A DNA stretch of 64,000 bases from Candidatus Krumholzibacteriota bacterium (GTDB lineage Bacteria; Krumholzibacteriota; Krumholzibacteriia; Krumholzibacteriales; WJIX01): contig JAXHNR010000002.1 in NCBI GenBank assembly GCA_034520215.1, forward strand, positions 344,642 through 408,641. The letters are read 5' to 3'. The notes under the pieces are model-generated. The model was not told the origin of the DNA. It searched no databases and saw only the letters and a list, made by a program, of their open reading frames with translations. Made by a program: the position numbers and the translations under genes. Positions 23,655 through 56,654 of this stretch are shown piece by piece. The first letter of the stretch is position 1. Each line of letters begins with the position of its first letter.

Positions 23655-23657
23655 TTA

Positions 23658-24833: not shown

Positions 24834-24863
24834 GTACAAAATGGTTGTAAAATTTTAAAAAGA

Positions 24864-26120: not shown

Positions 26121-26121
26121 T

Positions 26122-34564: not shown

Positions 34565-34766
34565 AAAGCTTGCAAAGAATGAGCAAAACATTGCTGCTCG
34601 TTTTACTTCTCGGTTTGAGCTGGGAAACAGATAATTCTTTCTCCCGATCTTATGGAAAGCTTTCAGTGTCTAGCGACAATTATTTTTCCCGTCTGGCGAC
34701 AATTAGAATTCCCGGTTATTAAGGGAATTGATAGACTGTCCAAGTCATGAGAATAAGGAGGCTTGG

Positions 34767-36143: not shown

Positions 36144-36243
36144 CACTCAGCGGCAATGAACCGGAGCCTGCCACTGATGTGAACATAGCAGATGTGGATC
36201 TCAGTGAGTATGACGCTCTTCTCGGTGAAAAGGAGGTGGCGAC

Positions 36244-37092
36244 ATGCTGAAAGCAGCAGAACAAAGAGATCTTCTTTTGAAATGCCTCAAGACTCTCCGG
36301 CTGCCGACAGTCCGTGAGTGTTACGAAGATCAGGCTGAAGAGGCAAGACGGGAAAGCTTAAGTTATGAGCATTATCTGTTAGAAGTTATGGAGCGTGAAC
36401 GCGAGGTTCGAGCCCAAAACCGTGTAATCCGGTTACTACGGCAATCGAAGCTGCCGTTGGAGAAAACAATAGATACTTTCGACAGGAACCGTCTTCCACG
36501 TAATGTTAACGCTCATCTCGATGTACTTCTGGAAGGTTCTTTTATAGACCGCAGAGAGAATGTGCTGGCCTTTGGTAATCCGGGCACTGGCAAGACTCAC
36601 CTTCTCTGTGCAATAGGGCAGGAACTGATCCATCAGGGCCGGAGAATCTATTTTAGACCGTGCAGTCCCCTGGTCCAGGATCTACTGGAAGCAAAGAGAG
36701 ACCTGAAACTTAAGCGACTACTGAAAAAACTGTCAAAATATGACGCGATCATCATTGATGATATAGGCTACGTGCAGCAGAACCGGGAAGAAATGGAAGT
36801 TTTGTTCGTTCTGCTAGCAGAACGATACGAAAGAGGCAGTGTGATGCTCACAAGCAATCTGCCGTTCTCAAAGTGGGAGAAAATCTTCAAAGATCCAATG
36901 GTAACTGCCGCAGCCATAGATCGACTTGTTCATCACAGCGTTATACTTGAACTCAATCTAGCCAGTTACAGATTAGAAGAATCAAACAAAGGAAGGAGAA
37001 ATAAAAAAACAAAATCGGCCACAAGAAAATCCAGAAACTATACCGGAAAGAAAAGGGAAAATTCATTGTCGTTAAAGAGAAAAAATAGTTGA
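36244..37092 (+). CDS. istB: IS21-family helper ATPase IstB
   Basis: Walker A GNPGTGKTHL, Walker B IIIDDIGY, and the IstB C-terminal tail. Confidence 0.75.
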   Translation: MLKAAEQRDLLLKCLKTLRLPTVRECYEDQAEEARRESLSYEHYLLEVMEREREVRAQNRVIRLLRQSKLPLEKTIDTFDRNRLPRNVNAHLDVLLEGSFIDRRENVLAFGNPGTGKTHLLCAIGQELIHQGRRIYFRPCSPLVQDLLEAKRDLKLKRLLKKLSKYDAIIIDDIGYVQQNREEMEVLFVLLAERYERGSVMLTSNLPFSKWEKIFKDPMVTAAAIDRLVHHSVILELNLASYRLEESNKGRRNKKTKSATRKSRNYTGKKRENSLSLKRKNS

Positions 37093-39004: not shown

Positions 39005-39187
39005 ATGAAAAAAAATTCTATTTTGGCAAATTTTTCAGAAAAAAGACGCAAATTGATTACTAATTTAGTCAGTAAGCATCCCGAGTTGGCGGAAGATGCT
39101 GTAATGCCTACTGTTTCTGACATTTACAGTCATGCAGGTTCAGGCAGGGATGAAGAAGACGAATTTCTTAAAAAGAGTTTGAGATAG
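39005..39187 (+). CDS. 60-aa small protein, candidate substrate peptide of the downstream rSAM/SPASM enzyme
   Basis: Ends 3 nt before the rSAM start. RBS AATGGAGG. Acidic C-terminal half (SGRDEEDEFLKK). No Cys. Confidence 0.35.
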   Translation: MKKNSILANFSEKRRKLITNLVSKHPELAEDAVMPTVSDIYSHAGSGRDEEDEFLKKSLR

Positions 39188-40265: not shown

Positions 40266-41255
40266 ATGAGCACAAAAAAGATTATATCTTTATCAGCAAT
40301 AATTGTAGTAATTGTGGCAGTTGTTTTGGCTGTAGTTCTTTCTCAGAGGGAAGTTTCGGAGAGCCGCACTATCAGATTCGGCTACAGGCCAATTTCTCCG
40401 TCCATAGATTTCTTCGTGGCAATGGACCGGGGCTTTTTTGAAGACGAAGGTTTAAATGTTGAGGTTAAAATATTCAGGGGAAGCAGTGACCTTACTAACG
40501 CTGTAATGGCCGGAGATGTTGATTTCGCCTCGGATTTAGGTATGGTTACCCAATTGCTTCCCATGATGCGCACAGGGGAGTATAAGGTGCTCTTCCTATC
40601 TCTAGACCTGGACGCTTTAGATTCACCCATGCGTGGGCCCACACTTGTGGTAAAGAAAGGTATCGGGGTTAGCGGCATAGAAGATCTAAAGGGGAAAAGC
40701 GTAGGTATATTCCCTGGAGTCAATTTCAGAATATTCCTGGAGGCCGTTTTAAGTGAACACGGCATAGATGTAGAAAAAGACGTTAATGTTGTCCAGATTC
40801 CGCCGCAAGAGCAGATGACAGCGTTTAAATCAGTAGACGCTCTTTTATCACTCGATCCAATCACAAGCGGGATAGAGAAAAGGTACGATGCTGAGGTATT
40901 AGCGGATCGAGTTTCAGCCAGATATATCTTTGATAACTTTCCTGCGGCCGCATCGTCGGTTAATCGTGAATTTGCAGAAAAATATCCTGAAATAGTGGCG
41001 AAGGTGGAGAGAGTAATTTCGCGGGGAATAGATTTTGTCCGCGAAAATCCTGATCAAACCGTGGAATCGCTCGCTGAATGGACGAATTTGCCGGTTGAAA
41101 TCGCCAAGACGATGGAGCCAGTAAAATATGCCAAGCACAGCGAGATCGATGTTCAGCAGCTTCAGAGGGCATGTGACTATATTTATGATATTGATTGGCT
41201 TAAATTAAACAGTAACCTCGATGCGTCGCGGCTGGTTTGGAAAAAGAAAAGCTGA
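40266..41255 (+). CDS. ABC transporter substrate-binding protein, NMT1/THI5-SsuA/TauA-like
   Basis: N-terminal signal/TM. Family assignment is by overall sequence character and its position with the NitT/TauT-type ATPase and permease. Confidence 0.55.
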   Translation: MSTKKIISLSAIIVVIVAVVLAVVLSQREVSESRTIRFGYRPISPSIDFFVAMDRGFFEDEGLNVEVKIFRGSSDLTNAVMAGDVDFASDLGMVTQLLPMMRTGEYKVLFLSLDLDALDSPMRGPTLVVKKGIGVSGIEDLKGKSVGIFPGVNFRIFLEAVLSEHGIDVEKDVNVVQIPPQEQMTAFKSVDALLSLDPITSGIEKRYDAEVLADRVSARYIFDNFPAAASSVNREFAEKYPEIVAKVERVISRGIDFVRENPDQTVESLAEWTNLPVEIAKTMEPVKYAKHSEIDVQQLQRACDYIYDIDWLKLNSNLDASRLVWKKKS

Positions 41256-41293: not shown

Positions 41294-42073
41294 ATGTCTC
41301 ATGCGATTGAAATTAATAATCTGACCAAGAAATATAAACAATCAAGCGGGGGAAATGGCCAGGACATTTCTGCTCTTGAAGGGATTGATCTAACAATAGA
41401 ATCAGGGGAATTTGTAACTATTTTCGGTCCTAATGGATGCGGGAAAACAACCCTGCTGTTGTGTGTTGCCGGTATTGAAGAACCAAGTACCGGTTCGATC
41501 CTCATTAACGATCGTTCGCCGCATGAGGCGCTCACTGGGTTTGTTTTCCAAAATTACAGAGAAGCTTTACTTCCCTGGAGGTCCTGCCTTGATAATATTG
41601 CTTTTCCTTTAGAAATATCTGGAATAGACAAAAAGGAAAGTAGAAATCGAGCTGAACAAATAGTTGAAGATCTTTATTTAAATATTGATCTTCGAAGCTA
41701 CCCATACCAGCAGAGTGGCGGGCAGCAGCAACTTGTAGCAATAGCCCGAGCACTCGTTTCGGACCCGGACGTACTGGTAATGGACGAACCATTGAGCGCA
41801 CTGGATTTAAAAGCAAGATTTCGAATGCGTGCTACCATAGAAGAGATATGGCAGAGAACGAATAAAACCACTCTTCACGTATCTCATGATGTTGAAGAAG
41901 CGGTTTATCTATCAGATAAGATAGTCGTTCTGTCTGAGCGCCCTGGCAAGATATTGCGGGTGATACCAAATACTCTGGAGAGGCCCAGAGATCGAACGGC
42001 CGGTTCTGTTGCTTATAACGAGATGAGGAATAAAGTCTTAGAAATATTCCAGGCTAATGAGGAGATCCAATGA
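41294..42073 (+). CDS. ABC transporter ATP-binding protein (NitT/TauT family)
   Basis: Walker A GPNGCGKTTLL, ABC signature QSGGQQQ, Walker B VLVMDEP. Confidence 0.75.
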   Translation: MSHAIEINNLTKKYKQSSGGNGQDISALEGIDLTIESGEFVTIFGPNGCGKTTLLLCVAGIEEPSTGSILINDRSPHEALTGFVFQNYREALLPWRSCLDNIAFPLEISGIDKKESRNRAEQIVEDLYLNIDLRSYPYQQSGGQQQLVAIARALVSDPDVLVMDEPLSALDLKARFRMRATIEEIWQRTNKTTLHVSHDVEEAVYLSDKIVVLSERPGKILRVIPNTLERPRDRTAGSVAYNEMRNKVLEIFQANEEIQ

Positions 42074-42834
42074 AAATTTCATGTTGGGTTAATATAAAAA
42101 GGGGATTAATGGTTCCCCTGGCAGCGATAATTCTCTGGCAATTAATATCTTCATCCGGCCTGGTGAATCCTCTCTACATACCGAGCCCGTATCTAGTGGG
42201 TAATGCCGTTTTGCGACTCTTTGGGGAAGCAGATTTTTGGAAAGGAGCAGGCGCAACTTTATGGAGAATGTTTGCCGGTTTTGCCGTGGCGGCATCTGCC
42301 GGAATCCCCATTGGTATTGTTCTTGGTTATATGAAACGCGCCTATAAATATAGCGAATTTCTAATTGATTTCTCACGTTCTATTCCTGCAACGGCTCTAT
42401 ATCCGCTATTCATTCTCGCTTTCGGAATAGGAGACAGCTCAAAGGTCGCTATAGTGTCGTTTGCATGTTTTTTCGTAATATTAATTAATTCAATATACGG
42501 AGTCTGGAATGCGCCGAAGACAAGAGTTATTATGGCCAAGGCATTTCGCGCTAATGATTATCAGATATTTACAAAAATCATTCTTTTTGATGCTTTGCCT
42601 CAAATATTTGCCGGTTTAAGAAATGCGCTTTCGATAGCGCTTATTATGACAGTTGTAGCTGAAATGTTCATTGGAACAAATAGAGGGCTTGGATTCTTAA
42701 TTATGAATTCAAAACTGGCATACGATACTCCTACGATGTATGCAGTGATAATAATTCTCGGCGCTATCGGTTATATAGCGAGTCGCGGGTTATTATACAC
42801 TGAAAAAATGGTTATTCATTGGTCCAGAGTATAG
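42070..42834 (+). CDS. ABC transporter permease (NitT/TauT family)
   Basis: Six or more hydrophobic segments. Start overlaps the ATPase stop by 4 nt. Confidence 0.6.
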   Translation: MKISCWVNIKRGLMVPLAAIILWQLISSSGLVNPLYIPSPYLVGNAVLRLFGEADFWKGAGATLWRMFAGFAVAASAGIPIGIVLGYMKRAYKYSEFLIDFSRSIPATALYPLFILAFGIGDSSKVAIVSFACFFVILINSIYGVWNAPKTRVIMAKAFRANDYQIFTKIILFDALPQIFAGLRNALSIALIMTVVAEMFIGTNRGLGFLIMNSKLAYDTPTMYAVIIILGAIGYIASRGLLYTEKMVIHWSRV

Positions 42835-42847
42835 AAAGAGAAGAAAA

Positions 42848-43828
42848 TTGAGCAATTTTGAAGATGCAATTTTTAGGCAGATAAGGGGGTTGTGGACAGG
42901 CCATGCTCTTTTAGCGGCAAAGAAATTAGGAATTATGGAACTTCTTATGAAGTCAGGTCTATCAATTCCCCAGTTAGCGGATCAGCTATCTGTTGATGAG
43001 AGAGGGATGCGAGCTCTGATATCAACTTTAAGTGACATTGGGATAGTCAATAATGAGAACGATGTAATAAGTCTTACGGCATTAGGTAGAGAAACATCTC
43101 TTCCAGACAGGTCTTTATCTGGTTATATAAAATTTCACTCGTTGCTCAGCAATCATTGGGCGAATCTCGATAAATTACTTAAAAAGGGATCTTCGCTGCC
43201 AATTGATCCGAATATCTCTGTTTCTCCTGAAATTGTGAAATCGTATATTGAAGCTATGGATGCTCTTGGAATGCCCATTTCGGAAGAGCTTGTAAATGCT
43301 CTCGACATAAAATCTGGAGATAGAGTACTTGATTTAGGTGGGGGAAGCAGCGTACATGCACGTGCAATATTGTCAAAACATCCAGATGCTCAAGTAACAT
43401 TACTTGATAGACCCATTGTTATTAAACTTCTAAAAGAAGAATTTTCAGGGAAGTGGAATATATCCAAGAACTTAATTTTAACTGAAGGAGATTATTTGAA
43501 TTTAAGGAGTGATGAGAAATATGATATTATTCTTTTATCAAATATAATTCATAATGAAAGTAGTGATAATATTCTTAATATACTCGAGAGTTGCTCTAGG
43601 GTTCTTAATGAAGGTTCCCGTCTGGCGATTCTGGATTATTTTTACAGTGCTAATAATAAATTAACTTCATCACCTGCAGGATTTGATTTATTGTTGTATT
43701 TGATAACCAGCCATGGCAAAATACAGAATCTGGATTACATCGAAGACCTAGTTAAACAAGCGGGTTTCATAGAGCCTGTATATTCAGTGTTGGGCAATTA
43801 CCGTTTGGGTATTTACAGAAAAGCATGA
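42848..43828 (+). CDS. SAM-dependent O-methyltransferase (class I, with N-terminal dimerisation/HTH-like domain)
   Basis: VLDLGGGSSVHARAIL (motif I) and DIILLSNIIHNES (motif II-like). Confidence 0.6.
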   Translation: MSNFEDAIFRQIRGLWTGHALLAAKKLGIMELLMKSGLSIPQLADQLSVDERGMRALISTLSDIGIVNNENDVISLTALGRETSLPDRSLSGYIKFHSLLSNHWANLDKLLKKGSSLPIDPNISVSPEIVKSYIEAMDALGMPISEELVNALDIKSGDRVLDLGGGSSVHARAILSKHPDAQVTLLDRPIVIKLLKEEFSGKWNISKNLILTEGDYLNLRSDEKYDIILLSNIIHNESSDNILNILESCSRVLNEGSRLAILDYFYSANNKLTSSPAGFDLLLYLITSHGKIQNLDYIEDLVKQAGFIEPVYSVLGNYRLGIYRKA

Positions 43829-43836
43829 GGTAGCTT

Positions 43837-45795
43837 TTGAGCAAGGAAAAGGATTTGTTCAGCCTGGTTCATCGCATACGCCCAAGAATGGAATTCTCAA
43901 AATACCTGCGTTCCTTAAAAAATACAAATGATCATAAAAATATTCGATTATATTTAGACCGTGTAATGAAGTCCGGTGATTACCCCGCACATATTGAGAA
44001 TTTCTTAAGCTTGTCTTTCAGGACTATACAGGATGAATTAATTTTACCTTTCCTCAAGGCAAATCCTCTTGATTTGAAGAACAATTGGAATATTATCTCT
44101 GGGGCTTTCACATATTTCTCCGGTGAAGCCGGGAAGGCCATTCCCTATTTCTTAAATTGGGATAAGACAGACGGCAAAGTGCAGCATTCAGTAAATCCGG
44201 GTTTTAAAATGTATTGCGATACCTTGAGATCTCAATCTAATGAAAACGAAATCTGTAATCATCCCGATATTGAAAACATACATGAATGTCCAGAATTGCG
44301 AAATTGCCTAGGCAAATTTCTCGACAGGATTAAATATACTGGTAGCCGACTTATTGAGAGAAAATTACCTGTAAGATCATTTATCTCATTTGAATTAGAA
44401 AAACTAAATGAAGTAGCATCCAATGATGCTGAAGCACAACGTGTATTTACAGAGCTGAAAAAATTAGCAGATATTGCTCCAGGCAAATCTATCGTTGAAA
44501 ACGATTCTATAAGATCTTCTTCTTCCATAAAAAAGGAGCTGGCTGAGACAGCTGATTTCCTTAGCCCAGATGTTCTAGATCTGGTTGTGGATATCTACGA
44601 ACAATTTAAATCAACAGCCCTTTTCCCACTATCAAATGGCAAATTCAATGAATCAGAAAGGAAAATGTCGAACAAATTACAACTAGAAAACATTAATTAC
44701 CTTTCAACGGAAAATTTGGAAACGGGCCATGATTATTCTCTTAAGGAATTCGCCAATCTTGTATTATCTTTGTCGGTTATTTACCAGGCGCCCTATTTTT
44801 ATCTGTTGCATTTTGGGCCGGCAATTAAAGAAGAAAGAGATGATGATTTTCCGGTCGGTACCGGTACGCTGGCAATTAACAGTTTTATGCTTAGGGATGA
44901 ACTTCTCAGCTATATAAGTCTGCTGGCCGATACGGCCATATCCTCTATTTCAAAAGCAGAAGCGGTAGTGCTCCAACACAGGCACGAGACTACAAAAAGA
45001 AACCTTCTTCTTGCTGAAAGTGCTTATGGAGTTGGCCATACTCAAAAAGACAGGTTTACCAGACTTCGGGGGCAGCTTGAAAACGCTGAAGATTATTTGT
45101 CCCCTGATCTTCTTGATTCGGCCGAAGCTGCTGTATGGGTAAGTAAAGCGAGAGCAAGCGCGAAAAAGGCAGCAGATAGTTCAACAACAATGGATTTTAT
45201 GGCTAACTTGTTTCAAGTTAACGGGGAGATCGAAAAAGTGGATTCCAGATTCTTTCCGGAAGAAGATGAAGGACCATACAACATTCACGAACATCTAAAA
45301 GATGAAATAAAGACTTTTGATGTGCCTTTCGAGTTGAACGCTAGTAATATTGAAAATCTACGTATTATCGATAATGTTGATGAAAATAAAAGAAGATTAT
45401 ATGATGAATTTTATGATGACATATTGCACGAATTATTAGCAAATGCAGTAAAAGCAACTACAGATAATATTGTACAACTGGAAATTAATTATCAGCCAAT
45501 AGATTTAAAATTAGATAATTCTAAAGATAAATTTGAATGCCTTGTAATATCAAATGAAACCAGGTATAGTGATTTTGAAAGCAGGCTTGGGCTTTCTGTT
45601 GGGAATTGGACTGAATGGGATATCGGGGAGAAAGGGCCAAAAGGCGCTTTAAGGCAAATCGCCATTCGTCTAAAAGCGACAAATCAGGGGCTCCTATTAG
45701 CCAAACCTGATTTAAAAAATGATAAATATTACTTTAGGATTGGTCTTTATTTATTCAATATGATAAATAGAACTAATGATAAACATGGGGGTTAG
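43837..45795 (+). CDS. cytoplasmic histidine-kinase-like protein (HATPase_c at C-terminus, degenerate G1 box)
   Basis: N-box LHELLANAVKAT. G2-like ESRLGLSVG. Candidate H-box QHRHETTKRNL. No TM segments. Confidence 0.4.
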   Translation: MSKEKDLFSLVHRIRPRMEFSKYLRSLKNTNDHKNIRLYLDRVMKSGDYPAHIENFLSLSFRTIQDELILPFLKANPLDLKNNWNIISGAFTYFSGEAGKAIPYFLNWDKTDGKVQHSVNPGFKMYCDTLRSQSNENEICNHPDIENIHECPELRNCLGKFLDRIKYTGSRLIERKLPVRSFISFELEKLNEVASNDAEAQRVFTELKKLADIAPGKSIVENDSIRSSSSIKKELAETADFLSPDVLDLVVDIYEQFKSTALFPLSNGKFNESERKMSNKLQLENINYLSTENLETGHDYSLKEFANLVLSLSVIYQAPYFYLLHFGPAIKEERDDDFPVGTGTLAINSFMLRDELLSYISLLADTAISSISKAEAVVLQHRHETTKRNLLLAESAYGVGHTQKDRFTRLRGQLENAEDYLSPDLLDSAEAAVWVSKARASAKKAADSSTTMDFMANLFQVNGEIEKVDSRFFPEEDEGPYNIHEHLKDEIKTFDVPFELNASNIENLRIIDNVDENKRRLYDEFYDDILHELLANAVKATTDNIVQLEINYQPIDLKLDNSKDKFECLVISNETRYSDFESRLGLSVGNWTEWDIGEKGPKGALRQIAIRLKATNQGLLLAKPDLKNDKYYFRIGLYLFNMINRTNDKHGG

Positions 45796-45797
45796 AA

Positions 45798-47396
45798 ATG
45801 ATGGCGGCAGGTTTTGACAAAATCCGCATTCTGCTTTTAGATGATAGAGACAGTCTCAGACCTCAGGACGGACTTTCTCCGAGATTAAAGAAATGGTTCG
45901 ACGTAAAATGGATTGCTACACCATCAGAAGCTCGTGCCTATAGGGATTCATCATGGGTTTGTATAACCAGAGAACCTGAATTGTTAAATAAACTTGGATG
46001 GGTGCCAGAAATATTTGTAATTGATTACGCGCTGACACAAGAAGAAATCCCTGTATTAGATAGAGTTAGAAGAAATAAAGATAAGTATACAGATTTGAGC
46101 CCCTTGCCCAACCTTGAGGATGCTCTTTCCAAACTTGGAATTAGTAGTTCAGGCATATCAGTCTTGAAGGAACCGCCGGTAACACCGTCTGCTGGAAGTG
46201 AATTCTGGGGCTGTTATATTGGTGGCCTTATTCTATCTACCTTCGCGGATTATCCAGTTTCAGCCGTTACAATAACAAGATATGGCGAGTCGGACTTCTT
46301 AGAAAATGCCAAGGATGTAGCATTTTTTGAATGGATGATGGAAAAACAGACAAATACTCAATTAAAGGGTACGGGAGCAAAAAGTTTGGATTGGACTGAA
46401 ATAATTTCTGAGGGTGCCATAAAACTCCGTGAAAGGATTAAGCAACTTGCCAGCATTGGTATAATAACATTGGACCTCGAGGATATTTTGCAGCTTATCC
46501 ATAATACAAGCCACCCAACAGTATCATATTCCTCAAGATATGGAAAAAGAAGTTTGCCAGTTCAAGGCCTATTTATAGATGAACGTGATGAAAAAGTAAG
46601 AAAAGAAAAAGCCAAGAAATGGGCCGAAGAAATAATCGAAGAAGCCTTGACTTATATGGAGAAAGGATCTGAACCAGAGGAATATGTAAGTACTTTAGAT
46701 CAAATTGAAGAAGGTTTAGGAGTAGCTAGAGACCTCTGGGATAAATGGGAAGGCGAAGAAGTGCCCCAACATATGGAATGTTCAAGAATATTCGGGCAAG
46801 TACAACAGGTAGTTAAAGCGGGCGAAAGAGATTTAAAAGAAGATGAAATAAAAGAACTGGATAGATGGTGCGCTAAATATGACTTAGTCCTGGAAGACGT
46901 TATAAATACTTTAAAAAAAAGAAAGTATACTCTTAAGACAGATGGGGGGGATATTAGAGCCTATAATTGTGATGTTATTGTAAAAAGGTGGGCTATTCTC
47001 TTCACGATTGTAAGGCTTGCAATTATTGCATGGCATGCCTCAAGGGAATTGGACCGTGATATAAGAATTTCCTCTCACGACGTATATATGGCACTTTTCC
47101 CCCTGGCAATTAACCTGCCTTATTATCTGCATGAGCCTATGGGTAAAGAATCAGGTGAGCATACAAAATATTTGAAAAGATTAAATAGAGACGGATCCAC
47201 TTCAAGCGGCTGGGGTGAAATTGGGATAAGTGTCGTTGATGTATTAGCAGGCAAAGATTTTGACGAAAATTCACATGGGTTATTTTCGTTTGAAAGGAAA
47301 ATTCTTCGAATGTTCTCTGTAGGGCTTGGTTGTGGCAACAGACAGAACTTAAAGAAAGGTTCTGTTTTGAATAACATATTATTTGGACCTTTTTGA
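45798..47396 (+). CDS. hypothetical protein with a degenerate receiver-like N-terminus
   Basis: IRILLLDDRD followed by EIFVIDYAL, which is the spacing of acidic pocket and phospho-Asp in receiver domains. The rest is unknown. Start overlaps the upstream stop. Confidence 0.3.
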   Translation: MMAAGFDKIRILLLDDRDSLRPQDGLSPRLKKWFDVKWIATPSEARAYRDSSWVCITREPELLNKLGWVPEIFVIDYALTQEEIPVLDRVRRNKDKYTDLSPLPNLEDALSKLGISSSGISVLKEPPVTPSAGSEFWGCYIGGLILSTFADYPVSAVTITRYGESDFLENAKDVAFFEWMMEKQTNTQLKGTGAKSLDWTEIISEGAIKLRERIKQLASIGIITLDLEDILQLIHNTSHPTVSYSSRYGKRSLPVQGLFIDERDEKVRKEKAKKWAEEIIEEALTYMEKGSEPEEYVSTLDQIEEGLGVARDLWDKWEGEEVPQHMECSRIFGQVQQVVKAGERDLKEDEIKELDRWCAKYDLVLEDVINTLKKRKYTLKTDGGDIRAYNCDVIVKRWAILFTIVRLAIIAWHASRELDRDIRISSHDVYMALFPLAINLPYYLHEPMGKESGEHTKYLKRLNRDGSTSSGWGEIGISVVDVLAGKDFDENSHGLFSFERKILRMFSVGLGCGNRQNLKKGSVLNNILFGPF

Positions 47397-47421
47397 TTCA
47401 TTTCCGAGGTGAAACAGTATT

Positions 47422-48054
47422 ATGCTTGAAGACCTTTCTATAAATGAACTAAATAAATTTGCCAAAGAATTTATAGGGCGATTAAGAGCAAATAATAATT
47501 TGAAAGTTGTCTCGAATAGATATACGGATAAAGAACTTGAGATTATTGCCATGAGTTTGCTTTATAGCGAAATGATTGAAAACTGGGACAGAATTCGCCC
47601 TTTTGAGAATTATGCTAGAGGAAGTTTGTATCATAAGTTTACAAGAGAACTCAAGGGCAAAGATGATTTGATTGGCCCAAAAGTATTAGATTTTCAGGAC
47701 GACAAAATAGATAAAAGTAAGACTCAGATGCCAAATAGCCTGGATATGAATATTGACACTGCTTATACAAGAAAGCTAAGAGCAGAAGAATTAATTTCTG
47801 AACTAGAATCGGCTAAAAGAGAACATCAGAGAGGGAAAAGGGTATTATCAAGGCGTCGCATGTATATCGAATTTGGAATTGGGAAAAAGAATTGGAGTGG
47901 AGTATACATAGGTCTTGGATTTGATCTTCATCCTGATATTTATTTAAAAGATGACAAAACTGAAGCTCAGAGGTTAGCTGTATTATCCCGCAGAAATACC
48001 TTTATTAAATACGGGCTTAGTGGAGAAAATGCCGAAATTGAGACGAAAGAATAA
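47422..48054 (+). CDS. hypothetical protein
   Basis: 210-aa ORF in the same operon. Low-complexity basic C-terminus. Confidence 0.3.
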   Translation: MLEDLSINELNKFAKEFIGRLRANNNLKVVSNRYTDKELEIIAMSLLYSEMIENWDRIRPFENYARGSLYHKFTRELKGKDDLIGPKVLDFQDDKIDKSKTQMPNSLDMNIDTAYTRKLRAEELISELESAKREHQRGKRVLSRRRMYIEFGIGKKNWSGVYIGLGFDLHPDIYLKDDKTEAQRLAVLSRRNTFIKYGLSGENAEIETKE

Positions 48055-48763: not shown

Positions 48764-48934
48764 ATGGAATCATTCGAAAAGGATATTATTCGCCAGTCAA
48801 GTATGCCGCTTGAGGATGGGGGTGACACGCATTTTCATCCCTGGAGTGATGGGAATGGATTCACTGTGACTACACGCCTTCCCGGTGGTGATGCATTCTA
48901 CGAAAATTTTGAAATTGATAGTTTTAATCAGTGA
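48764..48934 (+). CDS. small hypothetical protein (56 aa from internal ATG)
   Basis: RBS AGAGAGGAG precedes the ATG at 48764 (MESFEKDIIRQ...). Confidence 0.3.
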   Translation: MESFEKDIIRQSSMPLEDGGDTHFHPWSDGNGFTVTTRLPGGDAFYENFEIDSFNQ

Positions 48935-48962
48935 TTTGAAGCTTAAAAGAATAGGAGTTGCT

Positions 48963-49289
48963 ATGTGTTACAATTGCGGAAATTGCTGGTGTTATGGTTG
49001 TGACGATAATGATGATTATGAACTTCCTGGATATGGAAGCATTAATCATAAGAAAGATTATTACAATGACCTTCCTGAGCCTGTAGCTGACCCCATTGAT
49101 CCGGTTAGAGATATAGGTGGCACCATTTTGGGGCATCGAGATAGGTACCTGAATAGCTTTAAACCGCTTAGTGACCCTATGCCGATGGATATCGGTCCGG
49201 GAGGTTTTATAAGAGATCCTTTGGGAAACACGATTGGAGAGATAGGGCCCGGTAATACCCTTCTCCCTCCTCCCAGGATCGGTTTCTAG
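48963..49289 (+). CDS. small Cys-rich protein (108 aa) with N-terminal CxxCxxCxCxxC cluster and Gly/Pro-rich tail
   Basis: MCYNCGNCWCYGCDDNDDYELPGYGS... RBS ATAGGAG upstream of the ATG at 48963. Confidence 0.4.
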   Translation: MCYNCGNCWCYGCDDNDDYELPGYGSINHKKDYYNDLPEPVADPIDPVRDIGGTILGHRDRYLNSFKPLSDPMPMDIGPGGFIRDPLGNTIGEIGPGNTLLPPPRIGF

Positions 49290-49302
49290 CAGCTCTTATT
49301 TA

Positions 49303-49337
49303 AGATGGGGGCGATTAATCCCGCCCCCATCTTTTAA
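49303..49337 (+). terminator. rho-independent terminator
   Basis: aagatgggggcg-attaat-cccgcccccatctt forms a 12-bp GC-rich stem and is followed by TTTT. Confidence 0.7.
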
Positions 49338-49343
49338 AATCTA

Positions 49344-49769
49344 TTGAGTGTTAGAGCAAAAAATGAATGGAAGAATCTTATGAAGAATAATTTATTTAAA
49401 GTGAGAACCCTTTGCGAAAGCACAACTAATAGATTAGAAGAACTTCTTGAGGAAATTAAATGTTGCAAGTTGTTGGGGATTGAACCGAAAGGTGTAGATC
49501 TCAGTGTACTTCCGGATCTCGTTAAGATCAGAAGGGAATTTGATTTTCTTCATTGGCAGTTGTCAAAGATTGAACCGGAACCCTGGTATATTGAAGATTT
49601 AACACTTATTTCTGAGAGCTTAGAATATTGTGAGCATACCCTTATTGAGGAGATAAAAGGCTTACATAATTGTGAATGGAACTGGGAACTGAGCATAGAT
49701 AAGTGGATAGAGAAACTTTCAATAGTGTTGGTGCAGCTTCCAACTGAAAATATGAGCCCTAATGAATAA
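49344..49769 (+). CDS. hypothetical protein
   Basis: 141-aa ORF. No motif recognised. Confidence 0.3.
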   Translation: MSVRAKNEWKNLMKNNLFKVRTLCESTTNRLEELLEEIKCCKLLGIEPKGVDLSVLPDLVKIRREFDFLHWQLSKIEPEPWYIEDLTLISESLEYCEHTLIEEIKGLHNCEWNWELSIDKWIEKLSIVLVQLPTENMSPNE

Positions 49770-49890
49770 CGAAGATAAATAGTAATATTGATACGATCCA
49801 TTCCATCTCCGGAAACGAAATTCCAAATAAAAAGTTAGAAAAATATTTATATGCTCAATGGTATTTTGTCTCCAAGTCAAAGGAGGAATT

Positions 49891-52062
49891 ATGCTGCAGC
49901 GAATTAAATATGCATCACGTATAAAGGGCATCACTATATATGGAAATAGAAAAAAAATTATCAGGTGCAGTTTAATACTCGCCAGTTCAATTTTGATATT
50001 AGTCATTTTAATTTCCTTATTAGTTTCTTCCTATGTCTGGCCGAAAATGGATTACGCTCATGTTAGGAGCCTCCACCCGGCAATATACGATTCTAGCGGA
50101 AAGTACTGCGGCATTATTGCTGGCGCGATAGATCCTCACGCTGATTTCTCAACCAGTAGAAGCTGGGGAATTGATCACAAAACTTTTGAAGCGTCACCAG
50201 AAATCCCTGAAGTGTGGGAGTCAGTTCTTAGAATTCTGGAAGACCGTAACCTCGGTAATTTCCCGGGGTTCATGGGCCTTGATCCGGTGGGTTTAATTCG
50301 GGCCGTTGTTTCGGGAGGAAAATTTGGAGGATCAACTCTAGGAATGATGATAATTAGGACCTTGCTCATAGATGACAGCTCGTTTGTTTTTCCTGAGTAT
50401 CGCTACAACAGAAAATTAAAGGAAATACTATATACTCCGGCAATGTATTTAAGATTAGGCGAAGATGGCATTATCCGCTGGGCTTCGCTACATCTCGCCG
50501 TGGCCAGGGGAGCGAGGGGATCGGATTTCGGTGCCGTTCTCCACGGCATCAGCCCGGCTTCCCTGGCCGTTTTTAACAAAACACCCAATGAGCTTTCTGC
50601 AGCAGAGCAGGCGCTGCTGGCAGCGGCAGTCAAACATCACTTTTTGCTCAAACCCCTTCGTAAAGATTCTTATTCGGTAGACGAAACGCAATTTTTAAAA
50701 ACACGAAGAAGGGCTGTTTACGGAATTTCCCAGATTGACATGGATGAGACAGAAAAGAATGCCGCTATTAACGAGTTACAAGGCATGTCTGCTCCGACAG
50801 TAAGAATTGATCCGGAATGGCTAAGAATTTTACCCTCAGATGAATCAGAAACTTTTAAGGCCTATGCAAATCCCCAGAGGCTTTCAATATATGCGGTCAA
50901 AGGTGAAAGCAATTCAGTTATAGCTGAACTTCTGGAAAGGTTCGGATGGTCTTTCAGAGAAGAAATTGCGACGGTAACCATATCTATTGATGCGGTGGCA
51001 AACCGGACATTCAAGGAAAAGTTTGAAGAAAGACTTTCACATCTGGAGAAGTGCTATAAGGACAAAATTAATATCCCATTAATCTACGAAGATTCCAAGT
51101 ATAATACAGCAGAAATAGTTTTCGCGATGGCGGATGAAAACGGGCGGATAATACGATTTTACTCTAATACAGCGGGCGCATACTTTGGAAAAAATTCATT
51201 GCGAAATTCCGATGGAAAATATCAGCATAGAATCGGCGGGAGAACACTCGGCTCAATTAGCAAAGCCTATTGTGCGGTAATTCTCGGTGATGAAAACTGT
51301 TCTCCTGATGATATGTTTATTAATAAGTGTATCCCCGGTGTAAGGAATCCTGGAGGCATTCCTGGTGTAAAATCTTCTTCAGAGCGTGATGCATATTATC
51401 CAGCTGAAATAACTTTCGCAAGGTCACTTAATCTTCCCCTGCTGAACCGAATGATAAGAGCAGACAGGAATAAAATTATTCAGGCAAAGAAGGATTTTGG
51501 GATTACCTTGTGGGATGGTACTCCTCTGGCTACTGCATTTGTTCTGGGACATTGCTCTGCTACACCTCAACGAGTACATACATTCATATCAGATTTGCTG
51601 GCTTATATAGATGACGGGGGCCTCCCTGATAGAGAAACACATATTGTAGAATCTGTCCGAAAATATAGAAGCTCTGAAAGAATTATTATGTCGGATTCAT
51701 TCAGGCCAAGAATAAAAAGTTGGCTGGATGACTATCGATCCAGAGATTTCGTTGAAAGTGTACTCAGTTCAGTGGTGCATTTGGGGGGAACCGGTCAGAG
51801 AATGTCAGATTTAATACCCGAAAACGATCCAAGGATTGAACTTGCTATCGGAAAGACAGGAACTGGTACAACAGAAGATCATAATGAGATAACTGATCTT
51901 TTAATGACAGGTGGAATTGTATTGAGAAATTCCAACTACAAGAGATTGACTTACTTCGTGGCCATAAGGTCACCTATGCCTACGCGCCCTCTTGGAAAAA
52001 ATATATCCGCTGGTGAATTTCTAGCACCGCTTATCCGCCTGGCAATTAATGACGTACTTTAA
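49891..52062 (+). CDS. divergent class-A penicillin-binding-protein-like protein (GT51 glycosyltransferase plus transpeptidase-like domain)
   Basis: N-terminal TM. GT51 motif 1 EDRNLGNFPGFMGLDPVGLIRAV. Degenerate motif 2 GGSTLGMMIIRTLL. Motif 3 RKLKE. Transpeptidase-like SxxK (GSISKAY) and KTG (IGKTGTGTT). ATG at 49891 is preceded by AAGGAGGAA. Confidence 0.55.
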   Translation: MLQRIKYASRIKGITIYGNRKKIIRCSLILASSILILVILISLLVSSYVWPKMDYAHVRSLHPAIYDSSGKYCGIIAGAIDPHADFSTSRSWGIDHKTFEASPEIPEVWESVLRILEDRNLGNFPGFMGLDPVGLIRAVVSGGKFGGSTLGMMIIRTLLIDDSSFVFPEYRYNRKLKEILYTPAMYLRLGEDGIIRWASLHLAVARGARGSDFGAVLHGISPASLAVFNKTPNELSAAEQALLAAAVKHHFLLKPLRKDSYSVDETQFLKTRRRAVYGISQIDMDETEKNAAINELQGMSAPTVRIDPEWLRILPSDESETFKAYANPQRLSIYAVKGESNSVIAELLERFGWSFREEIATVTISIDAVANRTFKEKFEERLSHLEKCYKDKINIPLIYEDSKYNTAEIVFAMADENGRIIRFYSNTAGAYFGKNSLRNSDGKYQHRIGGRTLGSISKAYCAVILGDENCSPDDMFINKCIPGVRNPGGIPGVKSSSERDAYYPAEITFARSLNLPLLNRMIRADRNKIIQAKKDFGITLWDGTPLATAFVLGHCSATPQRVHTFISDLLAYIDDGGLPDRETHIVESVRKYRSSERIIMSDSFRPRIKSWLDDYRSRDFVESVLSSVVHLGGTGQRMSDLIPENDPRIELAIGKTGTGTTEDHNEITDLLMTGGIVLRNSNYKRLTYFVAIRSPMPTRPLGKNISAGEFLAPLIRLAINDVL

Positions 52063-52085
52063 CCATTTGAAAAGGAGGCATTACA

Positions 52086-53744
52086 GTGCGTGTAGACATA
52101 CCCAATCAAGCGAAAAAGAAGAGAAGAGTTTCAATCGATTCACTGCTGGCCATAGCAATAGTCCTCTGCAGTATTGCCAGTTTTAATTCTACCTACTATG
52201 GTTTTCGCTCAACCTATGCTTATCATGCTGAAGAAGCTTGGCTTACATGGTTTCTCCCCATATTTATCACCTTCGGAGTTCAAATTCTCCTGATCGCCAG
52301 TGTGATTAAATTCAAACGCTCAAAAGGATTAATAAGAAGATTTGCCTGGGTAGTAATGATCGTACTCGCGATGATGATTTCTACCGGGTATGGAATTTCA
52401 TACTGGGATGAAGCCATAGGGGCTAGAGAACGAATAGAGGTCAAAGCAGATGGCATAGCCTATAACGCAATGGAAACATTGGGAAAAGGGATCAGCACTT
52501 TTGACACATTTGTTCGCGCTTCCGAGGACCTTGCCGAGCATTCAGAAAAAATGGCTGAGTTAGAAGATAAAGAGGGATCCTCTTGTGGTTGTAAAGTAAG
52601 GGACGGGCAGGGACCACGCTGGAGAAAGAGAATGACAGATTTTCATACCATGCGTTCTCGTATTCCGCATATACAGGCTCTCAGGGATAGTTTGAATTAC
52701 GTATATAATAATATGATTGCGCGGACTGAGAACTTCGATGTCCATAATGTAGACAACTTTTCTAAATCCTTTAAGGTTGACATTCTCAGAGCAAACAAGT
52801 TCATTGGAGACGAACAGATAGCCATTCTTGACGGATGGCTCATTAAGCGGCTCAAGCAGAACGAAGATGGATTTTATGATAAAGGCAAGAAGTACACCTG
52901 CCCGGATCCCATTCTCAAAGAGAAAATGCTGGAGTTAAGAAGCTCCATTGAACATCTTTCTCCTCTGCCGAATCCCGGAGATATCAGGATTGACGATTCT
53001 AATGCAATCGAATCTATCAAGTACGTTTACAGTGCTTTCAAGAACGCACTTACTTTTATGCCCAAATCGACTGAACAGCTTGAAGCTGAAAGAAGAGAAA
53101 AGATAAACTCTCCCGCGGTCGATGAAGATTCCTCTAAGAAAGTTGAACCTGTTGCCATTCTCATTGGATGCACTGTAGATCTTCTTATAATCCTGGTTGG
53201 TTTTCTTTATGGGCCAACGGGGGGCTCTTCTCCTGATCCGAACACTCCCCTTCTCGGCAATGCTGCTGGAACACTCAAAAAGATGCTGGTTCGCCCTGAA
53301 TATAAGAGGCTTTTGTTAAGTTACATCAGTATGGATAGGGACACTGAGGATCTCGGAAGGTTCCTTCGCAAAAATATGACTCTGCTCCCGGATGGAAGGT
53401 ATATTATCAATTTTGATTCCGAGGATCTTGAGAGTGTTGAAAGGGATACGATTATTGAAATGCTCGATCTCTGGACAATAGACAAACTGGTGAAAGAGAT
53501 CGACCCCAAAAAGGAACCCTATTTCAAAAAGGAAGCGAAGAACTCAACAAACTACCTGTATCCGGAATTCCTGTGGAAACTTTCCAAGAATACCAGCCCT
53601 GCGGCTCTAAGAATCGCGATGAGAATTCTCCAGAGGAGAATAGAAATGGGCATGCCCTCAATAGCGGATTACAGGCAGGCAAAAAAGGAAATTGAGGATG
53701 ATCCTGAGTCCGGAGAATCTGGCGCCGAAGAAACCGCAAGCTAA
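52086..53744 (+). CDS. polytopic membrane protein of unknown function
   Basis: Three N-terminal TM helices, a roughly 250-aa soluble domain, a fourth TM (VAILIGCTVDLLIILVGFLYG) and an acidic C-terminus. GTG start. Confidence 0.4.
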   Translation: MRVDIPNQAKKKRRVSIDSLLAIAIVLCSIASFNSTYYGFRSTYAYHAEEAWLTWFLPIFITFGVQILLIASVIKFKRSKGLIRRFAWVVMIVLAMMISTGYGISYWDEAIGARERIEVKADGIAYNAMETLGKGISTFDTFVRASEDLAEHSEKMAELEDKEGSSCGCKVRDGQGPRWRKRMTDFHTMRSRIPHIQALRDSLNYVYNNMIARTENFDVHNVDNFSKSFKVDILRANKFIGDEQIAILDGWLIKRLKQNEDGFYDKGKKYTCPDPILKEKMLELRSSIEHLSPLPNPGDIRIDDSNAIESIKYVYSAFKNALTFMPKSTEQLEAERREKINSPAVDEDSSKKVEPVAILIGCTVDLLIILVGFLYGPTGGSSPDPNTPLLGNAAGTLKKMLVRPEYKRLLLSYISMDRDTEDLGRFLRKNMTLLPDGRYIINFDSEDLESVERDTIIEMLDLWTIDKLVKEIDPKKEPYFKKEAKNSTNYLYPEFLWKLSKNTSPAALRIAMRILQRRIEMGMPSIADYRQAKKEIEDDPESGESGAEETAS

Positions 53745-53773
53745 AACAGAAAACATGAATTTTGGAGGATGTC

Positions 53774-55708
53774 ATGAAAAGAAAAAAGAGAAAAGCAAAT
53801 AATAAGTCATTTTTAAGAAAATATGGTTTGTTACTGGCTGGAATTTTCATACTCCTTCTATATGGATTTGAATACATCAGGACGCCATGGACTGAAACTG
53901 TAATGGAAATTGGCAGGTATCCTTTGCATTCTTTGAGGTTTTTGGTGGGTAAGGGAGGACTTCTCGTTGCATGGGCAATGATATTGGCTTACCTGACAAA
54001 GAACGTTTCCGGGAGTTTAGTGCCGGGCAGGGGAAAGCGAGCAGGTATAATGACTTCTCTTATCATATCAATCTTTTTTATGCAGATCATCGGCAGGATT
54101 AGAGATGCAGGCAAACCATGGGGAGGCCTTATAGGAGAAGCAGTTCTTAAAAGCAGTATGGGTGAGTATGGAATAATCGGAGGACTGCTTTTTATCTCTT
54201 TACTGGTAATCGCGATAATTCAGTTCGGATTCAGATTGTCAATTATTAACCACAAGAATATAAAAAATCTTTTTATTTCAGCAGGAAATATGATCTCAAA
54301 GGGGGCAAGGAATATTATGAATTTCTTAAAGAATCACCATTCTGAAATCATCAGATTGGCGCACAGAATGTATTATGCAACCCTTGATTTTCTCCTTGAG
54401 GATGAAAAAGAAGAATCATTATCAGGAGCAAGTTTATATCCTCAGGCAACCAAACCTATCAATGGAATAACTTATAACATGGCTTCTAATTCTTCTTCAC
54501 TCGATCATAGTGAAAATGAAAAAGATACTGAAAGCCAAGTAATAAGTTCAAATAAAACTGAGAGCCGATATCCAGATATGCACAGAAACCTACCGGATAT
54601 ACTTTTAAAGAATCCTCTCCCTCTTGAAATACTACCTGATGTACCGAACGAGATACATAAAGCTCGAGAGAAACTCCATGATGAAATGGATTTCATAGAA
54701 GAGACTATAATTCGCATGGCTTATCAGATGGAAGGGGTCCGTCTCGGCATTATGGACAATAACAAAATAATAGGTATGACATCGATGACTATTAAGTTTA
54801 CAAGAAATGGCAGGGAAGGACCTGTGATAACAAATCTTTCCCGGATTGTAAATGACCTTCAGATTAAAATAGGAAGGAACCCGATATCGATATATTTCAA
54901 GGATAACGTGGTCTTTGAAATACCTTTGAAGCCTGAGGAATGCAAGACAGTTTATTTAAAAGAACTTCTCTATGACTTAAAAGACCTCTCAGATGATTCA
55001 ATAAAAGCGGCCATCGGAAAAGACAGCTACGGAAAACCGACACTGTTGGATTTCGGTAAAGATCCTCATTACCTCATAGGCGGCAGTACTGGAAGTGGGA
55101 AAACGATATGCCTGAAATCTATCGCACTCGGCCTTGCATGTCGTTATTCTCCTGAAAATCTTTGGCTGGTTTGTTCAGATCACAAGGGAGATCTTCGCCG
55201 ACTTGAAGCACTCCCTCATATGAAAATACCTATAGCAAAAGATGATAATGAATTCATCGATTTCATAAATTATCTTGAAGATATGACGGAATTCCGTAAA
55301 AAGATTATAGGTACAGAGGAGTTTGACAGATTACCTAAAGTGGTTGCGATAATAGACGAAGTTCACGGATTTGAGGATAGAGACAGACTTGCCGGACTTC
55401 TTGCTGTGTGCAGGAGCCTCAAAATATCAATTATTCTTGCAACCCAGCACCCTAAATCAACAGTTTTACCCACCAAGCTGACTGCAAATTGCCCTGGCAG
55501 AATTGCCTTTAAGACAGCCACTAAATCTGCAAGCAGGATTATTATAGAAGAATCAGATGCTTACAAATTGCTAGGGCAGGGTGATGGGCTTGTTAAACAT
55601 TCAAGGGGAAGAGAACGGTTTAAAGGGGCTTTTGTGAGTGACATGGATTTGGAGGCAGTTGATGAGTATGTATCCGTTATCAACGAGATGGAAGTATATG
55701 ATGCTTAA
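53774..55708 (+). CDS. FtsK/SpoIIIE-family membrane-anchored ATPase (single motor domain)
   Basis: Four N-terminal TM helices. Walker A GGSTGSGKTICLKS, Walker B VAIIDEVHGF, and the ATQHP motif typical of FtsK-HerA ATPases. ATG at 53774 follows GGAGGA. Confidence 0.65.
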   Translation: MKRKKRKANNKSFLRKYGLLLAGIFILLLYGFEYIRTPWTETVMEIGRYPLHSLRFLVGKGGLLVAWAMILAYLTKNVSGSLVPGRGKRAGIMTSLIISIFFMQIIGRIRDAGKPWGGLIGEAVLKSSMGEYGIIGGLLFISLLVIAIIQFGFRLSIINHKNIKNLFISAGNMISKGARNIMNFLKNHHSEIIRLAHRMYYATLDFLLEDEKEESLSGASLYPQATKPINGITYNMASNSSSLDHSENEKDTESQVISSNKTESRYPDMHRNLPDILLKNPLPLEILPDVPNEIHKAREKLHDEMDFIEETIIRMAYQMEGVRLGIMDNNKIIGMTSMTIKFTRNGREGPVITNLSRIVNDLQIKIGRNPISIYFKDNVVFEIPLKPEECKTVYLKELLYDLKDLSDDSIKAAIGKDSYGKPTLLDFGKDPHYLIGGSTGSGKTICLKSIALGLACRYSPENLWLVCSDHKGDLRRLEALPHMKIPIAKDDNEFIDFINYLEDMTEFRKKIIGTEEFDRLPKVVAIIDEVHGFEDRDRLAGLLAVCRSLKISIILATQHPKSTVLPTKLTANCPGRIAFKTATKSASRIIIEESDAYKLLGQGDGLVKHSRGRERFKGAFVSDMDLEAVDEYVSVINEMEVYDA

Positions 55709-56102: not shown

Positions 56103-56335
56103 AAGGGTGTCTAGCGTCAACTATTTTTTCTCTTTAACGACAATTAAATTTCCCTTTTCTTTCCGGTAGAGTTTCTGGATTTTCTTGTGGCCGATTTCGT
56201 TTTTTTATTTCTCCTTCCTTTGTTTGATTCTTCTAATCTGTAACTGGCTAGATTGAGTTCAAGTATAACGCTATGATGAACCATTCGATCTATGGCTGCG
56301 GCAGTTACCATTGGATCTTTGAAGATTTTCTCCCA
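56103..56335 (-). pseudogene. istB: IS21-family (type 1) right end with IstB C-terminal fragment
   Basis: 56103-56140 is identical to the reverse complement of the IS right terminus at 37063-37102. Encoded tail WEKIFKDPMVTAAAIDRMVHHSVILELNLASYRLEESNKGRRNKK matches the IstB C-terminus. Confidence 0.65.
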
Positions 56336-56500
56336 AGTTTGGCAAACCAAATATCTGCAACATCGGAAACAGATGCTTTTGATTCCGAATGGAATGTTGG
56401 GTCGACTTTCTTCTATAAAATTATTGCTGTCTATAGGCATGGAAATAAGAGTGAATCTGCTTTGCTCATTCCTGATCAGATAGTTGTGTAGATTCCGGAT

Positions 56501-56602
56501 CAAACCTGCCACTTTGGTATGGTTAAACAGCAGGGAATAGAAAGTACCTCAGGGGTGGCAGGTTAAAACCGGAATGAGTGGCAACTTTCACCGGAATACA
56601 CA
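56501..56602 (+). repeat. IS21-family (type 2) right-end terminus, copy C
   Basis: Near-identical to 21765-21866 and to the reverse complement of 30222-30325. Confidence 0.65.
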
Positions 56603-56654
56603 TTATTTTGGCGAAATCAGAAAATTAATGATCGAAGCATCGAGTGATATATAT

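Follow-up and report, generated by a model that had tools for sequence, protein, structure and literature searches.

The locus described here lies in a 64,000-nt stretch of DNA from a Candidatus Krumholzibacteriota bacterium (contig JAXHNR010000002.1, positions 344,642 to 408,641; hereafter the window, with positions counted from its first letter). A first-pass annotation had singled out three genes at 43837-48054, here designated P1, P2 and P3, as a possible atypical two-component or defence module. As described there, the three open reading frames (ORFs) lie back-to-back on the plus strand; all are intact, and the gaps between them are 2 nt (P1/P2) and 25 nt (P2/P3). The genes are adjacent but not isolated: with them ends a dense same-strand cluster that begins at 39190 or 39005, with a spacing of -4 to 38 nt between the genes upstream of P1. 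The cassette consists of an ATP-binding cassette (ABC) importer and S-adenosylmethionine (SAM)-dependent enzymes, followed by P1, P2 and P3 as its proposed regulatory end:

39005-39187, plus strand: candidate first gene, a 60-aa ORF ending 3 nt before the next start codon
39190-40230, plus strand: radical SAM (rSAM)/SPASM enzyme (Pfam Radical_SAM, E = 7e-34; SPASM, 2e-8)
40266-41255, plus strand: SsuA/NMT1-type (sulfonate/nitrate/taurine) substrate-binding protein (SBP; NCBIfam SsuA_fam, 2.6e-31, below cutoff)
41294-42073, plus strand: ABC transporter ATPase (NCBIfam SaoA-like, 2.6e-66, below cutoff)
42070-42834, plus strand: ABC transporter permease (NCBIfam SaoP/SsuC-like), overlapping the ATPase gene by 4 nt
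42848-43828, plus strand: O-methyltransferase with an N-terminal dimerisation/helix-turn-helix-like domain (Pfam Methyltransf_2, 1.2e-17; Dimerisation, 3e-7)
43837-45795, plus strand: P1, 652 aa, TTG start with GAGG 6 nt upstream
45798-47396, plus strand: P2, 532 aa
47422-48054, plus strand: P3, 210 aa, the third slot

The rSAM enzyme resembles peptide maturases and falls under every NCBIfam equivalog cutoff, its best match being nif11-class maturase 3 (225 bits vs a cutoff of 725). The stop codon of the O-methyltransferase gene is 8 nt ahead of the P1 start. P1, P2 and P3 had zero matches when scanned against Pfam, NCBIfam, PHROGs and PADLOC, and their exact sequences are on record from one Candidatus Krumholzibacteriota metagenome-assembled genome (MAG) only. 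P3, previously described as basic, is marginally so (K+R 38 vs D+E 35), and not clearly.

A promoter scan performed no better than on shuffled sequence and is therefore uninformative. Terminator-like sites number 16, compared with 8.5 ± 2.7 in shuffles, and do not define the operon ends. At 39015-39085, overlapping the 60-aa ORF, there is a full-length match to the cyclic di-GMP-I (c-di-GMP-I) riboswitch model, in which the first hairpin (GGCAAA...GACGCAAA) is good and the second helix is poor. Riboswitch control of the operon was rejected on the strength of the sub-threshold score (20.8 bits vs a gathering score of 35), the poor second helix and a fold z-score of -1.2, and a riboswitch search in 13 related loci found none.

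Predicted folds and conserved residues of P1 and P2

An exhaustive HMMER search with P1 and P2 concatenated retrieved 261 cluster representatives at E <= 1e-3, of which more than 130 resemble P2 along most of their sequence and about 18 resemble P1. Homologs were found while the curated models stayed silent; judged by sequence, P1 and P2 therefore belong to real yet uncatalogued families. A word-indexed homolog search with P1, used as a single sequence or in profile form, recovered nothing but P1 and one fragment, and a search of P1 and P2 against PDB sequences gave nothing beyond one insignificant match (E 0.47). The features of P1 are as follows:

43837-44973, plus strand: N-terminal region, aa 1-379, the variable putative sensor part, modelled with low confidence
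44974-45216, plus strand: DHp-like helical hairpin, aa ~380-460, with the H-box AYGVGH401TQKDRF (His401 codon 45037-45039)
45283-45780, plus strand: GHKL/CA-like alpha-beta domain, aa ~483-648 (Foldseek, hhalign, column counts)
45442-45444, plus strand: codon of N536 in the N box (E532/N536); R520 and D523 are further key residues of the domain (column counts)
45553-45555, plus strand: codon of N573, at the G1 Asp position (hhalign mapping)
45634-45654, plus strand: G2-like motif G600-P-K-G603-A-L-R606 (hhalign mapping)

The C-terminal 270 aa of P1 can confidently be predicted to adopt the fold of a histidine-kinase DHp+CA core. An AlphaFold2 model computed from an alignment of 18 sequences is poor over residues 1-376 (predicted local distance difference test, pLDDT, below 50) and confident over residues 380-648 (pLDDT about 90); in it, a long hairpin of two helices (353-420, 428-460) leads into an alpha/beta domain. 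When this model was compared with the PDB using Foldseek, the top 40 matches were all histidine-kinase DHp+CA cores (E 2e-6 to 1e-3, probability 1.0), including those of LvrB, RetS, HK853, a bacteriophytochrome kinase, YF1, DesK, CusS and NtrB. Alignment of the P1 family with six E. coli histidine kinases by hhalign (E 2e-5, with cross-controls at E 0.1-0.4) places H401 on the phospho-His of EnvZ, E532 and N536 on the N box, N573 on the G1 Asp and the stretch from G600 to R606 on the G2 box.

Conservation across the P1 family is restricted to residues ~380-643. H401 is present in 16/16 members and is kept in all related loci checked; R520, D523, E532 and N536 are invariant (17/17), as are W594, G603, R606, A609 and L612 (17/17) and N573 (18/18). 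The G2-like stretch is conserved as G600-P-K-G603-(G/A)-L-R606, a pattern that departs from GxGxG. The H-box, N-box and G2 calls made in the first pass are thus not due to chance, since they are conserved across the family, and the accompanying statement that P1 has no transmembrane segment is borne out by a maximum 19-residue Kyte-Doolittle mean of 1.34. This strict conservation of the pocket residues argues for a working ligand site rather than a decayed one. In the variable N-terminal region, four cysteines (C127, C140, C151 and C157; 44215-44307) form a cluster found only in the closest relatives, P0025 and P0077, and may represent a metal or Fe-S site of the sensor part.

P2 divides into two parts:

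45798-46457, plus strand: receiver-like domain, aa 1-~220 (D15/D16 codons 45840-45845, D76 codon 46023-46025, T160 codon 46275-46277)
46458-47396, plus strand: C-terminal domain, aa ~221-532, a beta-hairpin and helices

On the predicted model, P2 is an atypical response regulator, with an acidic receiver pocket, the putative acceptor Asp76 and a new helical output domain of ~310 aa. Its N-terminal part has the (beta-alpha)5 CheY-like fold, and predicted strands beta1 (9-14), beta3 (72-75) and beta4 (155-158) precede D15/D16, D76 and T160, respectively, as in CheY-like receivers. An hhalign comparison with seven E. coli receivers equates D15/D16 with D11/D12 of OmpR and D76 with its D55 (E 5e-4; cross-controls E 0.1-0.4). 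The D-D...D pattern that had been noticed in the sequence is a family feature: D15 occurs in 48/52 members and D16, D76 and T160 in 52/52, with G138 and P153 also invariant. An insertion of ~80 aa between beta3 and beta4 stretches the receiver to ~220 aa, so that the remainder of the protein, previously put at about 400 aa, is actually about 310 aa long.

The C-terminal half is kept in 123/134 P2-type representatives, with conserved residues S246-R-Y-G-x-R251, W275, W314, R397-W398, P435 and E499, and no known fold stands out for it in a structural search. A PDB profile search with P2 gave only insignificant matches to the PorX receiver (E 0.3-0.6); structural matches to PorX are likewise limited to the receiver, and a search for PglZ in the P2 family found none. 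HEPN was considered as the general identity of the C-terminal domain and rejected: the HEPN domain of the family member P0095 is an insertion of ~170 aa at profile positions 335-371, and the window P2 carries no Rx4-6H motif at this site. Similarly, P0102 (L032, 10001-12253) is not a fusion of P2 with a third-slot protein, since its extra 270 aa are an internal insertion, which has no family match. Two places in the P2 scaffold accept such large insertions, one at profile positions 335-371 and one at 406-467 (P0095, P0102).

The atypical two-component assignment made in the first pass is upheld by these results. Fold prediction gives histidine-kinase-like similarity for P1, with the boxes mapped by hhalign and conserved catalytic-type residues, and receiver-like similarity for P2; the candidate phospho-His and the candidate acceptor Asp are both conserved.

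Related loci, the third slot and the surroundings

The ORFs of the related loci were scored with hidden Markov models (HMMs) built for this analysis. A P1-like gene lies directly ahead of the P2-like gene, often overlapping it, in every locus with upstream sequence, and one or more genes of an SBP-dependent ABC importer (ATPase, permease or SBP) are found upstream in 13/13 loci that extend far enough. Four types of importer are represented: SsuA/NMT1, NMT1_2, TrpX/ABC_sub_bind and Liv-type. In most cassettes a SAM-dependent enzyme of the rSAM-SPASM or methyltransferase type is also encoded; in L002, L005 and L009 no SAM enzyme lies between the ABC importer and the triad. In L029 and L030, an rSAM-SPASM enzyme and a P1-like protein are fused into a single chain of 1208 aa, whose rSAM part resembles the enzymes of L006 and L007 (1e-61) and whose C-terminus matches the P1 core HMM (2e-10). 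The N-terminal regions of P1 proteins fall into mutually unalignable classes that track the transporter type, as would be expected of a sensor module matched to an import pathway. The genes flanking the cassettes vary between loci.

A scan of the genomes of GTDB representatives found the family in two genomes only, one MAG from Phycisphaerae and one from Pyrinomonadaceae. L025 (125-2816; P2 58% identical), which is the window cassette's closest relative, is degraded to a C-terminal fragment of P1, a truncated P2 and small ORFs, and adjoins a DDE transposase. A HATPase_c_3 protein and 2-oxoglutarate-Fe oxygenases are encoded nearby in L032.

The gene that follows the P2 homolog in related loci usually encodes a protein of 200-320 aa. 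Third-slot proteins of L003, L007, L026 and L027 score above the Pfam gathering score for Sigma70_r2 (that of L026 also for Sigma70_r3), and the third-slot protein of L010 resembles FliA/WhiG. The L007 protein matches solved region 2 domains of extracytoplasmic function (ECF) sigma factors (E 3e-7), and its matches to solved sigma factors are confined to that region. In a leave-one-group-out matrix test, a C-terminal RRxxW-type motif is common to most third-slot groups, sigma-positive or not (p about 1/255 to 3/255). For the window P3, homology extends no further than the third-slot proteins of L001 (1e-8) and L025 (1e-23); it has no Pfam or other family match, and the region 2 domain (PF04542) was not detected in it.

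The wider surroundings of the cassette contain the following:

21942-29880, plus strand: biosynthetic cluster of very low guanine-plus-cytosine content (0.29-0.32; neighbours 0.43-0.48), with genes for a carbamoyltransferase, methyltransferases, a GT2-methyltransferase fusion, a NadA-like protein, a second radical-SAM enzyme, a PIG-L deacetylase and a GT1 glycosyltransferase
34728-37092, plus strand: complete IS21-type pair, IstA (Mu-transposase C-terminal domain) and IstB, ~2 kb upstream of the cassette
48885-55708, plus strand: five ORFs after an 830-nt gap downstream of the triad
56144-61321: IstB fragment and a minus-strand restriction-modification (RM)-like cluster (N6_N4 methylase, a DUF6996/DUF6997/DUF7226 protein and a Dam-type methylase)
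60464-61321: tyrosine recombinase, after the RM-like cluster

Since an IS21 pair lies near the cassette, this region is a variable, insertion-prone part of the chromosome. The five downstream ORFs encode a Cys-rich protein of 134 aa (CYNCGNCWCYGC), a protein of 141 aa, a PBP1-like transglycosylase (734 aa), a membrane protein of 552 aa and a membrane-anchored FtsK/SpoIIIE ATPase that resembles SspH and mad8 in PADLOC; together they look like mobile-element or defence cargo.

A proposed transporter-coupled relay and its alternatives

We read P1-P2-P3 as a His-Asp relay in the cytoplasm that is coupled to a transporter and acts on a sigma-like partner, and we give this reading an even chance of being right. 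P1 would sense in the cytoplasm either the imported solute, possibly after modification by the rSAM enzyme or the methyltransferase, or the state of the transporter or the rSAM enzyme. It would then be phosphorylated on His401, from a postulated phosphodonor, and pass the phosphoryl group to Asp76 of P2. Phosphorylation of P2 would alter how its output domain, through a putative contact with P3, holds or releases the sigma-like third protein, and the release or capture of that protein would set the transcription of the cassette or of its regulon. In the window, we infer the sigma-like nature of P3 from its position, because sequence methods gave no link to sigma factors. Of this scheme, the folds, the catalytic-type residues and their conservation, the order of the genes and the rSAM::P1 fusion are shown, whereas phosphotransfer, the ligand, the phosphodonor and the P2-P3 contact are proposed. 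The locus looks like a previously undescribed regulatory cassette, not an established phage-defence system.

Several observations weigh against the relay. The DxGxG motif of the G1 box is absent from the P1 family: Asn573 is invariant at the Asp position (18/18), no glycines follow it, and the residue preceding it is variable. The first-pass annotation had called this box degenerate and added that P1 might be a pseudokinase or an unusual GHKL protein, a caveat that these column counts support. The acid that follows the phospho-His (H+1) is also missing, with T402 in the window P1 and P 10, T 3 and E 2 of 16 in the column. In HisKA kinases and GHKL ATPases, the G1 Asp reads the N6 of adenine and the H+1 acid is the catalytic base, and the G1 Asp and glycines together with the H+1 acid are needed for adenine binding and autophosphorylation. 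Because all of these are missing, classical ATP-driven autokinase activity of P1 is doubtful. Pfam HisKA and HATPase_c match neither P1 nor any of the 18 family members (E up to 1), and Response_reg matches neither P2 nor any of the 52 members of its family. The beta5 Lys column of the receiver contains K in 25 and R in 8 of 52 proteins; the window P2 has T192, with K190 nearby, and its model has no beta5 strand call. As for the third slot, searches with phmmer, leave-one-out HMMs, hhalign and PDB profiles gave no link between the window P3 and sigma factors or sigma-positive third-slot proteins, and its RRxxW motif score is marginal (p about 0.05). No Sigma70_r4 was found in any third-slot protein scanned, and L032 has no third-slot gene at all. 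Finally, the sample of related loci is small (~15, non-redundant) and consists mostly of metagenomic contigs, with two MAGs included.

The main rival follows directly from the lack of the G1 Asp and the H+1 acid. P1 could be a pseudokinase that retains the kinase fold without autophosphorylating on ATP; it would serve as a scaffold or phosphatase under ligand control, or bind another small molecule in its remodelled Bergerat pocket (GTP, a SAM-derived product or the imported solute), with P2 being phosphorylated by another donor or regulated solely by binding. The invariant Asn573 without G1 glycines, the Pro or Thr at H+1 in 13/16 members and the failure of the Pfam models on the whole P1 family all fit this alternative, and RetS, a kinase fold that works via protein-protein interaction, is among the top structural matches. 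It must also account for a His401 that is kept in every member and locus checked, for N-box Asn and Glu residues and G2-like glycines that are invariant too, and for the (near-)invariant D15/D16, D76 and T160 of P2, which are hard to explain without phosphoryl chemistry in a cognate pair. We consider it possible, if on the unlikely side.

Comparison with known systems helps to place the proposed relay. P1 shares with the kinases of classical HisKA systems (EnvZ/OmpR, HK853/RR468) a DHp hairpin with a His in an H-x-L-K/R-x-x-L context, a Bergerat-fold CA domain, the N-box Asn and a glycine-rich G2, and, as in those systems, an adjacent cognate receiver has a DD/D/T pocket. It differs from them in its G1 Asn, in the missing G1 glycines and H+1 acid, and in being soluble with a lineage-specific N-terminal region; P2 differs in the 80-aa receiver insertion and the new output domain, and neither protein matches the Pfam models HisKA, HATPase_c or Response_reg. 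The BceRS-BceAB systems show a similarly strict linkage between a kinase/regulator pair and an ABC transporter, and their kinase, which has no extracellular sensor, may read the transporter or its substrate; there, however, the transporters export, lack an SBP and are paired with a kinase, BceS, that sits in the membrane, whereas the cassettes described here combine SBP-dependent importers of several families with a soluble kinase. SpoIIAB and RsbW resemble P1 in having a small GHKL domain with an ExxxNA N-box and in working with a sigma factor, as is proposed for P1, but they have neither a DHp nor its His and keep the G1 DxGxG, while P1 has a DHp hairpin with a conserved His and a cognate receiver.

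Precedents are found in systems in which a receiver protein controls a sigma factor. In the PorX/PorY-SigP system of Porphyromonas gingivalis, the response regulator PorX, which like P2 is about 520 aa long and has no DNA-binding domain, acts through an ECF-type sigma factor (PMC4800418), as is proposed for P2. PorX carries a PglZ/alkaline-phosphatase output domain, in contrast to the unrelated helical domain of P2; porX, porY and sigP are dispersed, whereas P1-P2-P3 lie in one operon; and PorY is a canonical membrane kinase, whereas P1 is soluble. In PhyR-NepR-EcfG, a receiver protein phosphorylated by a histidine kinase controls an ECF sigma factor via protein-protein interaction (PMC8999054), which is the role proposed for P2. 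PhyR, however, has a sigma-like domain, differs from P2 in domain order and needs the anti-sigma factor NepR, whereas P2 shows no sign of a sigma-like domain and is not accompanied by a NepR-like gene. By analogy, the proposed relay would be functionally comparable to PorXY-SigP or PhyR-NepR-EcfG and built from different parts.

The defensive two-component systems that the first-pass annotation had in mind are probably Detocs, in which DtcA is a cytoplasmic kinase with a TPR sensor, DtcB a receiver that stands alone, and DtcC a receiver joined to an effector such as PNP (10.1101/2023.01.24.525353). In an anti-phage or conflict system of this kind, P1 would be a sensor kinase activating a receiver-effector that harms the cell or the invader, and the third protein would be a modulator. 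The layout is comparable, with a three-gene operon, a cytoplasmic sensor kinase, a receiver with a non-DNA-binding output and HEPN in one P2 lineage. In that lineage, the P2 of P0095 has acquired, by insertion, a Swt1-like HEPN RNase whose RNxxxH motif (RNKYIH) is intact, and its cassette (L029, 6382-22022; L030) is followed by an SNF2 helicase and SACS-like genes and adjoins the BREX genes brxL and pglZ. A SWI2/SNF2 helicase lies upstream in L001, and CHAT-TPR proteins are neighbours in L002 and L005. The family is rare and patchy across phyla, and several loci, the window included, lie in variable regions rich in mobile elements; the window copy itself sits amid IS21, the RM-like cluster, the integrase and the FtsK/SspH-like ATPase.

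Other evidence points away from defence. HEPN occurs in only 1/10 long P2 variants scanned, the window P2 has no recognisable killing effector such as PNP, and PADLOC matches none of the three proteins. The cassette has no TPR sensor (no Pfam match) and no stand-alone receiver equivalent to DtcB that could act as a buffer, given that P3 has no receiver signature and the cluster contains no other small receiver gene. Flanking genes are inconsistent among loci; defence neighbours comprise BREX beside L029 and RM-like genes ~9 kb from the window copy, and most other loci in this small sample have none. A tblastn search with P2 found no homolog in 72,556 plasmids or 50,697 phages. The P1-P2 family is obligately linked to SBP-dependent ABC importers and, in most cassettes, to SAM enzymes, with sigma-70-type proteins as further frequent partners; the constant partners thus have a metabolic or regulatory look. 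We know of no defence system that uses an SBP-dependent ABC importer together with SAM enzymes. The Detocs-like interpretation is accordingly improbable; defence is a minority possibility for the family and unlikely for the window copy, and the proposal of a defence module at this locus is not supported.

That P1 and P2 are instead non-signalling accessory subunits (scaffold, substrate recognition or chaperone) of an rSAM/methyltransferase pathway that builds or alters a peptide or cofactor, starting from an imported precursor, is very improbable: the rSAM-SPASM::P1 fusion, the likeness of the rSAM enzyme to peptide maturases, the 60-aa ORF abutting its gene and the SAM enzymes in most cassettes would suit such a pathway, but L002, L005 and L009 lack a SAM enzyme between importer and triad, the type of SAM enzyme varies while the kinase-like and receiver-like cores are constant, and the conserved His, the Asp pocket and the sigma-type partners are signatures of signalling rather than of catalysis.

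Meaning for two-component signalling

What is new here is a kinase/receiver pair made up of two uncatalogued families: it is linked to a transporter, its GHKL pocket is non-canonical and its partner is of the sigma type. Two-component systems are well catalogued, yet P1 and P2 escape every curated model and are recognisable by structure only, so that divergent His-Asp relays may be under-counted in uncultured phyla. This is surprising for specialists in two-component systems and directly testable; all functions named here are predicted.

We tentatively extend the relay to a more specific mechanism, which we regard as unlikely in its entirety and under which the cassettes would be a hitherto unrecognised class of transporter-coupled signalling device. 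A GHKL protein with a remodelled pocket would use a non-ATP ligand or an rSAM product to drive or gate a His-to-Asp relay, the new output domain of an insertion-bearing receiver would control a region-2-only sigma partner with an RRxxW tail, and the HEPN swap in one lineage would make a conflict or abortive-infection switch. The invariant Asp-to-Asn change at G1 in an otherwise conserved pocket offers a direct test of a Bergerat-fold kinase with a different nucleotide or ligand, and the HEPN-bearing sister lineage is a natural experiment on a regulatory relay turning into a conflict system. That the pair occurs with SBP-dependent importers of several substrate classes and, in most cassettes, with SAM enzymes, in one case as a fusion with the kinase, suggests an 'import, modify, sense in the cytoplasm' logic whose output would go to a dedicated sigma-like factor, an architecture not previously described for ECF-type regulation.

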